DNA from: Deltaproteobacteria bacterium
GTDB lineage: Bacteria; Desulfobacterota; Binatia; UBA9968
Assembly (NCBI GenBank): GCA_016180805.1
Contig: JACPAM010000109.1
Span: 734-64,733 of the forward strand
Direction of reading: 5' to 3'
Length of the DNA: 64,000 nucleotides
This document shows positions 27,608 through 28,078 of this stretch, piece after piece. Both the position numbers and the translations under genes were made by a program. The notes under the pieces are model-generated. The model ran no database searches. It worked only from the letters and a program-made list of their open reading frames with translations, and was not told the DNA's origin. Position 1 is the stretch's first letter; the number at the start of each line of letters is the position of its first letter.

Positions 27608-28078
27608 CTAACGCCGGGCTCCCTCCAATGCCTCTACGATGGTATCCCCTTCCAGAGCCAGCTCGAGCGTGCCGAGAAGCTCGTCGTACTTCTCTCCGCC
27701 GATCATGGCTTTCATTGCGGGCTCGAAGACATGGTAGGTATCGAGGCCGAGCTCGACCCCGGTCAACGGACCCGAGTAGGTGGGATCACCGCGGGTGACC
27801 GTCTCGAATTGAATCAGGGAGCTATCGACGTTGGGCGCTCCCAGGAGTACAACGAGATTATTTCTGCCAAGACTTTCGGCGAGTTCTTTGATTCGACCTT
27901 GAACCTCAAGGTCCATGGCGCCGGCCGCGGTTCAGACAAAGCACTGCGTCGTGGAATAGACGATTTCCGCGCCGAGGTCTCCCACTGCCTCCTCGATCGT
28001 CTGCGCCGGGACTCCGTCCCTCTCTCCGAGGATGATGAGCTTTTTCCCCGCTAAACCCAGTTCCTTTGTGCCTGCCAT
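27608..28078 (-). CDS. grdA: glycine/sarcosine/betaine reductase complex selenoprotein A (GrdA), in-frame TGA = selenocysteine at 27932-27934
   Basis: Minus-strand translation from ATG 28078 (SD AAAGGACGGCGGAGG) gives [85 protein letters not shown]...GDPTYSGPLTGVELGL... This matches GrdA, including the conserved [13 protein letters not shown] redox motif. The ORF track reports only the post-TGA part (27608..27916). Confidence 0.85.

Follow-up and report, generated by a model that had tools for sequence, protein, structure and literature searches.

GrdA, the selenoprotein A of glycine/sarcosine/betaine-type reductase complexes, is a classic bacterial selenoprotein. It has been characterised in Eubacterium acidaminophilum, Clostridium sticklandii and Clostridioides difficile, and the truncation of its gene at the in-frame UGA is a known annotation artefact: gene callers treat UGA as a stop and therefore report fragments of 48 and of 102 or 106 amino acids in place of one protein. 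Here we describe a grdA gene that was missed in this way in a 64-kb stretch of contig JACPAM010000109.1 (the window), together with the operon to which it belongs. Like the characterised proteins, the GrdA of the window matches its family over the full length and above the equivalog cutoff, carries a C-x-x-U motif in which selenocysteine (Sec) is specified by UGA, has a hairpin downstream of that codon, and is encoded alongside genes for components B and C. The annotation artefact, truncation at the UGA, is also the same.

The locus nevertheless departs from the classical arrangement. Among the related loci collected for comparison (designated by L numbers; homologous proteins by P numbers), those of the classical type (L047-L053) have the order grdE-grdA-grdB-grdC-grdD, whereas the window has grdB-grdE-grdC-grdA, with no adjacent grdD, trxA, trxB or grdX, and its host is a high-GC, probably Binatia-like, uncultured bacterium. 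The grdA gene is in itself a textbook case that will not surprise a specialist; it is a previously unannotated member of the family in a poorly studied lineage.

An intact grdA gene with a single in-frame UGA

The grdA coding sequence lies on the minus strand (27608..28078), from an ATG at 28078 to a TAG at 27610..27608. The frame comprises 157 codons, that is, 156 residues including selenocysteine 49, plus the TAG, and contains a single internal TGA. A GGAGG ribosome-binding site can be read from the sequence 5 nucleotides before the ATG (28084..28088, minus strand). The TGA (27932..27934, minus strand) is codon 49, and translation puts it, in the context QCFV-TGA-TAAG, at the redox C-x-x-U position of the family (C46-F-V-U49). 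The initial annotation had proposed that reading from the ATG at 28078 gives a GrdA-like protein with the TGA at the position of the selenocysteine, and that the 102-amino acid open reading frame (ORF) listed at 27608..27916 on the minus strand is only the post-UGA portion of a gene missed by ORF calling. Translation reproduces every one of these coordinates, and the ORF list agrees with the second statement.

For profile searches, the TGA position was entered as Cys. The protein scored 189.6 bits with NCBIfam NF040748, the equivalog model for selenoprotein A of the glycine/sarcosine/betaine reductase complex (cutoff 130), and 188.8 bits with Pfam GRDA PF04723 (cutoff 22). Both alignments run in one stretch from residue 9 to residue 155, on model positions 1-147 of 147, and span the TGA. 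The alignment to GrdA models that the initial annotation had called for is a full-length one, and the 48 amino-terminal residues, for which a lack of GrdA homology would have been damaging, are covered by the same profiles; they are also matched in P0001, a full-length homologue in which the TGA is rendered as W (67% identity over 94% of the query). On related contigs, the orphan 48-amino acid piece has itself been given the label PF04723 by other pipelines. A sequence search of the PDB with GrdA returned no solved relative. We are highly confident that the region is an intact grdA, encoding selenoprotein A of a glycine/sarcosine/betaine-type reductase complex.

DNA of relatives was obtained through exact-protein look-ups, from GTDB representative genomes and from JGI metagenomes. 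Each of the 38 distinct grdA sequences fetched has TGA as the corresponding codon; they originate from Binatia-like bacteria, Actinomycetota, Desulfobulbales, Alphaproteobacteria and bioreactor contigs, and amino-acid conservation among the homologues is unbroken across this TGA. A search of 5.8 billion proteins showed how the family appears in databases: most GrdA relatives are fragments of 102-106 amino acids that start at the Met after the TGA, and the few full-length entries carry either W, where the TGA has been mistranslated, or C, in true Cys forms (CFVC) that are 41-55% identical. This pattern of fragments and of W or C entries is typical of a selenoprotein. As to the lineage, the nearest named relative of the window's GrdC among the GTDB representatives is that of 'Deltaproteobacteria bacterium RIFCSPLOWO2_02_FULL_57_26' (79% identity), and matches of the GrdE-like protein named 'Candidatus Binatia bacterium' are 67-69% identical. 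The host most probably belongs to Binatia or to a close neighbour of it.

A SECIS-like hairpin within the coding sequence

The bacterial selenocysteine insertion sequence (SECIS) of the E. coli fdhF type is a stem-loop that forms part of the reading frame shortly 3' of the UGA, and the model behind bSECISearch (Zhang and Gladyshev 2005) reportedly looks for it roughly 16-37 nucleotides after that codon. A SECIS-like hairpin within about 40 nucleotides of the grdA UGA, which the initial annotation had suggested looking for, is present at 27895..27913 on the minus strand. It has the sequence GACCUUGA-GGU-UCAAGGUC, 19 nucleotides in all, with an 8-bp stem that begins 18 nucleotides after the UGA and a GGU apical loop 26 nucleotides after it. 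It is the sole hairpin in the centroid fold of the 76 nucleotides around the UGA, and it has a free energy of -9.5 kcal/mol when folded alone.

The comparative evidence comes from 10 distinct sequences of the window's clade, with 67-100% nucleotide identity. Throughout these relatives, each of the six codons of the hairpin (GAC, CTT, GAG, GTT, CAA and GGT) is represented by one codon only, whereas outside the hairpin 22 of the 23 degenerate codons that are invariant at the amino-acid level (positions -20 to +40) use two to four synonymous codons. The contrast between 6/6 invariant codons inside and 1/23 outside is significant (Fisher exact p = 1.5e-5). Codon bias cannot explain it, because this genome uses four of the six only as minor codons (CTT 16%, GTT 16%, CAA 27%, GGT 13%), a combination with a joint probability of 3e-4 given the amino acids. 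Frozen synonymous sites of this kind mark an RNA element within the coding sequence, here a SECIS to which SelB is predicted to bind. More distant clades have a different hairpin, which lies a few nucleotides nearer the UGA and again carries GGU in its loop.

A second selenoprotein gene in the same operon

A grdB-like gene, encoding a selenoprotein B of 443 residues including Sec351, lies 3.5 kb upstream of grdA (31106..32437, minus strand). It too had been split by ORF calling, into 31385..32437 (350 amino acids) and 31106..31360 (84 amino acids), on either side of an in-frame TGA at 31385..31387 (minus strand) that translation places in the context VAT-TGA-GTC. Joined over this codon, the protein reads ...GVLLVAT-U-GTCSRSGAVISKEIDRAGLP..., with the motif VAT-U-GTCSRSG, and ends at a stop that is itself a TGA (31108..31106). 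It scores 438.7 bits with TIGR01918, the selenoprotein B subfamily model of glycine/betaine/sarcosine/D-proline reductases (cutoff 65.45), and 371 bits with PF07355. A TGA occupies the Sec codon in 29/29 distinct grdB-type sequences collected.

This second UGA is also followed by a SECIS-like hairpin (31357..31373, minus strand). It appears in the centroid structure with a 7-bp core, UCGCAGC/GCUGUGA (31373..31367 with 31363..31357), that closes a GGU loop 18 nucleotides after the UGA and can be extended to 12 bp in the window sequence. Across 26 aligned sequences, 97.3% of the cells are paired, a value reached in none of 500 shuffles (0/500), and every slid register gave poorer pairing. Two pairs show compensatory double changes between clades, from U-A to C-G and from U-A to A-U, partly at synonymous sites. 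In both window genes, the loop is a 3-nucleotide GGU, with SelB binding predicted; it starts with G and, at 26 and 18 nucleotides from the UGA, falls within the interval of the bSECISearch model, while neither hairpin resembles the fdhF SECIS in sequence. With a separate UGA and hairpin, the second gene independently supports a context-dependent reading of UGA as Sec. Because two selenoprotein genes with hairpins occur in one operon, such decoding is by far the best reading of the data.

Weighing other readings of the UGA

Several results weigh against this reading, or against the presence of a complete system. The minimum free energy (MFE) z-score of the 76-nucleotide grdA region is unremarkable (-0.12), and the z-score is not significant for either 76-nucleotide UGA region, that of grdA or that of the grdB-like gene; for this reason, the case for the hairpins was built on comparative evidence. 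Within its clade, the grdA hairpin is invariant and offers no compensatory pairs, its support coming from the conservation of synonymous sites. No Rfam family matched either hairpin, with the window searched at the gathering threshold and the UGA regions at E <= 10. The genes selA, selB and selD and a tRNA-Sec were not found in the 64-kb window by ARAGORN and by Pfam searches of the ORFs. SelA and SelD of L048, used as tblastn queries, had no match in the window, and neither the window nor any of 38 related loci yielded a tRNA-Sec with ARAGORN. Sec insertion, and the sel machinery itself, are therefore inferred for this organism. The genes for GrdD, thioredoxin and thioredoxin reductase were not found in the window either, so that a complete canonical complex is not encoded there.

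The simplest competing explanation is that the TGA is a true stop, which would make the region a pseudogene or a pair of genes for 48 and 102 amino acids, or else that it stands for a Cys codon misread in sequencing or assembly. Gene callers do give exactly these 48- and 102-amino acid pieces on related contigs, and Cys-containing GrdA homologues are known (P0010, P0011, P0085, P0120). Yet a decaying pseudogene would not retain a TGA at the same codon in 38/38 distinct sequences from several phyla; amino-acid conservation continues past it, and a conserved hairpin follows. The possibility of a Cys codon in a corrected assembly, raised at the outset, can be dismissed on other grounds: the Logan assembly L001 (run SRR12113429), built independently from reads of the same population and with a 100% identical GrdC, has the same grdA TGA, which excludes an assembly error. 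A true stop, a pseudogene or an error is thus very improbable, and this explanation is effectively refuted already. Less probable still is a variant code that reads UGA as sense, as code 4 does for Trp and code 25 for Gly, so that residue 49 would be an ordinary amino acid, even though the database entries P0001, P0014 and P0015 translate the grdA UGA as W. TGA is the stop codon of 16 of the 48 window genes, including the grdB-like gene, and these genes have full-length family matches up to the stop, which argues for local recoding and not for a changed code. A scan for in-frame TGA codons with coding-like flanks recovered the grdB-like site only, the other finds being adjacent genes in the same frame, and the grdA TGA fell under the threshold on GC content at third codon positions (GC3) used in that scan; the in-frame TGAs are thus those of grdB-like and grdA, both at known Sec positions. 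Moreover, the window has a GC content of 58.5%, against the low GC content of the known code-4 and code-25 lineages. The initial proposal that the organism recodes UGA as selenocysteine is upheld by the conserved TGA, the hairpin and the second gene, with the qualification that the recoding is site-specific.

If UGA is decoded as Sec in this way, the Grd and selenocysteine literature allows a course of events to be proposed by analogy. The hairpin would recruit the SelB-GTP-Sec-tRNA(Sec) complex, and the ribosome would insert selenocysteine rather than terminate. Following the reaction scheme of Andreesen (2004) in the form summarised in PMC9908766, the selenoprotein of component B would pass a carboxymethyl group to Sec49 of the mature 17-kDa GrdA, and component C would then turn this group into an acetyl thioester and, further, into acetyl phosphate, leaving a selenide-sulfide bond between Cys46 and Sec49 that thioredoxin would re-reduce.

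Organisation of the operon and the adjoining importer

The operon is carried on one strand and reads, in order, grdB-like (32437..31106), grdE-like (31090..29786), grdC (29550..28105) and, last, grdA. The grdC gene (28105..29550, minus strand) encodes the 481-amino acid beta subunit of component C, which matches NF040746 over its full length (502.8 bits, cutoff 450) and contains the Pfam domains DUF5940 and ACP_syn_III; its stop lies 26 nucleotides ahead of the grdA start. The grdE-like gene (29786..31090, minus strand) encodes a component B subunit of 434 amino acids (PF09338, 315 bits) that has more than 1,000 database relatives. The order grdB-grdE-grdC-grdA is shared by L003/L008/L037/L038 and by L006, and in L044/L045 the grdB-like, grdE-like and grdA genes occur without an intervening grdC. 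A C-terminal remnant of grdC, consisting of the DUF5940 part or of the last 35 residues, is found upstream of grdA in L039 (3196-3594), L040 (4209-4313), L041 (6604-6708), L042 (1024-1128) and L043 (1077-1475), and may represent a decayed or domain-only grdC.

As to grdD, tblastn detected it only in the classical-order loci L047-L053. With GrdD of L048 as a query (E <= 1), neither the window nor any locus with grdA after grdC gave a match, and no window ORF matched an FA_synthesis-type Pfam family. The loci with grdC followed by grdA and no adjacent grdD (the window, L003, L005, L006 and L009-L036) come from Binatia-like, Actinomycetota, Desulfobulbales and alphaproteobacterial metagenome-assembled genomes. 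Likewise, Pfam assigned none of the window ORFs of at least 70 amino acids to a thioredoxin or pyridine-nucleotide disulfide reductase family. A grdD gene may lie elsewhere in the genome of the window organism. The classical-order contig L048, from a bioreactor metagenome, reads grdE-grdA-grdB-grdC-grdD-selD-selA, with selD and selA directly after grdD (L048:10486-14279; L047 is similar). Its selD ORF seems N-terminally truncated, at 303 amino acids, and may itself encode a selenoprotein.

Downstream of grdA, on the same strand, lies a set of genes for an ATP-binding cassette (ABC) importer. The gene for the ATP-binding subunit, of the NitT/TauT (nitrate/sulfonate/taurine) type, starts 219 nucleotides downstream of grdA (26570..27388, minus strand). 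It is followed by permease 1 (25722..26573, minus strand; PF00528), permease 2 (24937..25719, minus strand; PF00528), which shares 86% identity with the L005 protein, and a periplasmic substrate-binding protein of the NMT1/SsuA type (23890..24894, minus strand; PF09084 and PF13379), 88% identical to that of L005. Permease 1 starts with a GTG at 26573, in a 4-nucleotide overlap with the ATPase stop; the ORF listed for it (25722-26828) is 85 codons overlong, and the protein matches the L005 permease over all 283 amino acids (84%). In L005, too, the importer comes after grdA, with 86-91% identity (91% for the ATPase). The best matches of the transporter to SaoA and SaoX, of Haft's selenoprotein-linked SAO system, are sub-threshold and reflect a general NitT/TauT similarity, which gives no evidence of membership in that system. 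A scan of 23.5-33 kb for promoters and terminators produced counts near the shuffled expectation and was not used.

An atypical component B

Canonical GrdE forms its pyruvoyl cofactor from a cysteine, Cys242 in the C. difficile protein (PMC9908766). The Schiff-base chemistry that this cofactor serves is needed only for glycine and sarcosine: FarE, of the fluoroacetate reductase, and GrdI, of the betaine reductase, lack the two cleavage cysteines and are therefore not proproteins (PMC10838667). In the window and its clade, alignment shows that the GrdE-like protein is likewise without both self-cleavage cysteines, having TVNT-T246-R-GI-G where the canonical sequence is SGN-C-VSA-C, as in the classical 428-amino acid GrdE of L052 (SGN-C242-VSA-C). 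By contrast, the GrdE proteins of the Desulfobulbales and alphaproteobacterial loci retain this motif, and those of the Desulfobulbales type reach about 420 bits; two of these loci, L018 and L028, have kbl/tdh-like genes near them. The GrdB-like subunit differs from the canonical form in two further features. The CxxC that follows Sec, described as a motif protecting it (PMC10838667), is replaced in this protein and its clade by CxxS (U-G-T-C-S/T-R-S instead of U-G-T-C-T-R-C), and ATU stands in place of STU before the Sec. Together, these changes suggest that component B is not a proprotein, with a small chance that the conserved Thr in the column of Cys242 supports a self-processing reaction of another kind.

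The profile scores also set component B apart from the subfamilies with an assigned substrate. GrdB-like reached 402.5 bits with the GrdB (glycine) equivalog, 419.3 bits with GrdF (sarcosine) and 379.7 bits with GrdH (betaine), where the cutoffs are 602, 800 and 775, respectively, and GrdE-like scored 219.7 bits with the GrdG model (cutoff 780) and 127 bits with FarE (cutoff 675). The betaine reductase GrdH/GrdI and the fluoroacetate reductase FarB/FarE are variants of component B that are not proproteins. With them, the window shares an E-type subunit lacking both cleavage cysteines (PMC10838667) and a dedicated transporter gene next to the operon, and the CxxC after Sec, which is wholly absent from FarB, is incomplete here. 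It differs from them in scoring far below the GrdH and FarE cutoffs (380 against 775, and 127 against 675), in having a conserved Thr at the Cys242 position of its GrdE-like protein, and in its transporter, which is of the NitT/TauT ABC type and not an OpuD/BCCT or major facilitator superfamily (MFS) carrier. D-proline reductase (PrdA/PrdB), whose PrdB is likewise a selenoprotein, is distantly homologous to component B. The Prd scores are only marginal, however (78 bits for PrdB against a cutoff of 300, and 29 for PrdA against 700), and proline reductase, unlike the system of the window, uses no GrdA or GrdC.

Because component B lacks the pyruvoyl-precursor cysteine and a NitT/TauT-type importer adjoins the operon, the substrate of the complex is probably neither glycine nor sarcosine; the enzyme would act on a compound that does not require a carbonyl cofactor. 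A more specific proposal can be put forward only tentatively, namely that the Binatia-type operon encodes a Grd-type selenoenzyme, devoid of pyruvoyl, for another alpha-substituted acetate (not glycine, sarcosine, betaine or fluoroacetate) that the adjacent sulfonate/taurine-type transporter imports, and that it possibly works independently of GrdD, handing the acetyl group to another acceptor. Alternatively, the complex could be a canonical glycine reductase in which the peculiarities of component B are neutral lineage drift and grdD, trxA and trxB are encoded elsewhere in the genome. This is rather unlikely, but it is not a negligible alternative: GrdA and GrdC exceed their equivalog cutoffs, the scores of GrdB-like with the three substrate models are about equal (402 bits for glycine, 419 for sarcosine and 380 for betaine), and database sources name the relatives 'glycine reductase' or 'sarcosine reductase'. 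Drift accounts poorly, however, for the wide margin by which GrdB-like misses all three substrate-specific cutoffs, for the loss of Cys242 and of the second Cys, both needed to form the pyruvoyl group required in glycine and sarcosine reduction (PMC10838667), and for the changes of CxxC to CxxS and of STU to ATU. The Desulfobulbales-type GrdE proteins have retained their Cys pair, and a NitT/TauT-type importer is not a known glycine transporter.

Other genes in the window and in related loci

Three paralogues of the UbiD decarboxylase family are present in the window, at 17058-18533 (minus strand), 32655-34070 (plus strand) and 55463-56911 (minus strand), and the second of these is divergent from the grd operon and directly upstream of it. 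Genes for NMT1/SsuA-type binding proteins are unusually dense, with five copies, all on the minus strand (6575-7708, 10238-11416, 23890-24894, 51526-52491 and 57329-58282). A hydantoinase/oxoprolinase A and B pair lies at 2197-6509 (minus strand), and L005 has the same pair downstream of its grd/ABC cluster; conceivably, these enzymes help to produce a Grd substrate, from hydantoin or creatinine-type compounds for instance. The window also carries a gene for an IS200-like (Y1) transposase (41170-41973, minus strand) and an 85-amino acid phage-integrase fragment (1658-1915, minus strand).

In L006, a 593-kb contig of a relative, the region 35-8132 encodes three GrdE-like paralogues, each sharing 62-69% identity with that of the window. 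The first two genes are each followed by a binding-protein gene, and the NMT1-type one stands immediately before the grdB-like gene and the third grdE-like gene. This layout suggests several substrate-specific modules that share one GrdA/GrdC. Among the Desulfobulbales-type loci, 12 have a gene for a FadD-like acyl-CoA ligase (614 amino acids) directly upstream of grdC-grdA (L012, L017, as at L017:7998-9842, and 10 more). Five have a nearby glycine C-acetyltransferase-like gene (Kbl, a sub-threshold match) and, in the same loci, a gene for an NAD-dependent dehydrogenase/epimerase taken as Tdh-like, whose best NCBIfam match is a sub-threshold one to D-erythronate dehydrogenase.

Implications

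For annotation, the consequence is that the grdA and grdB-like genes of the window need to be joined manually across their UGA codons, and hundreds of fragments in public protein collections call for the same repair. For biology, the operon places a Sec-dependent, Stickland-type reductase in a high-GC, probably Binatia-like lineage of soil or sediment. Our search of a literature library found no paper that links Binatia or Binatota to selenocysteine or to glycine reductase, and nothing on grdD in Desulfobulbaceae. The unusual component B, an importer of the TauT type and the grdC-grdA arrangement without grdD are of more interest than grdA itself, but only suggestive. They hint that the substrate range of Grd-type enzymes outside the Firmicutes, and perhaps the last step of their reaction, have not been fully mapped. 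If the GrdD-independent reading were true, the acetyl group would be passed to a different acceptor.

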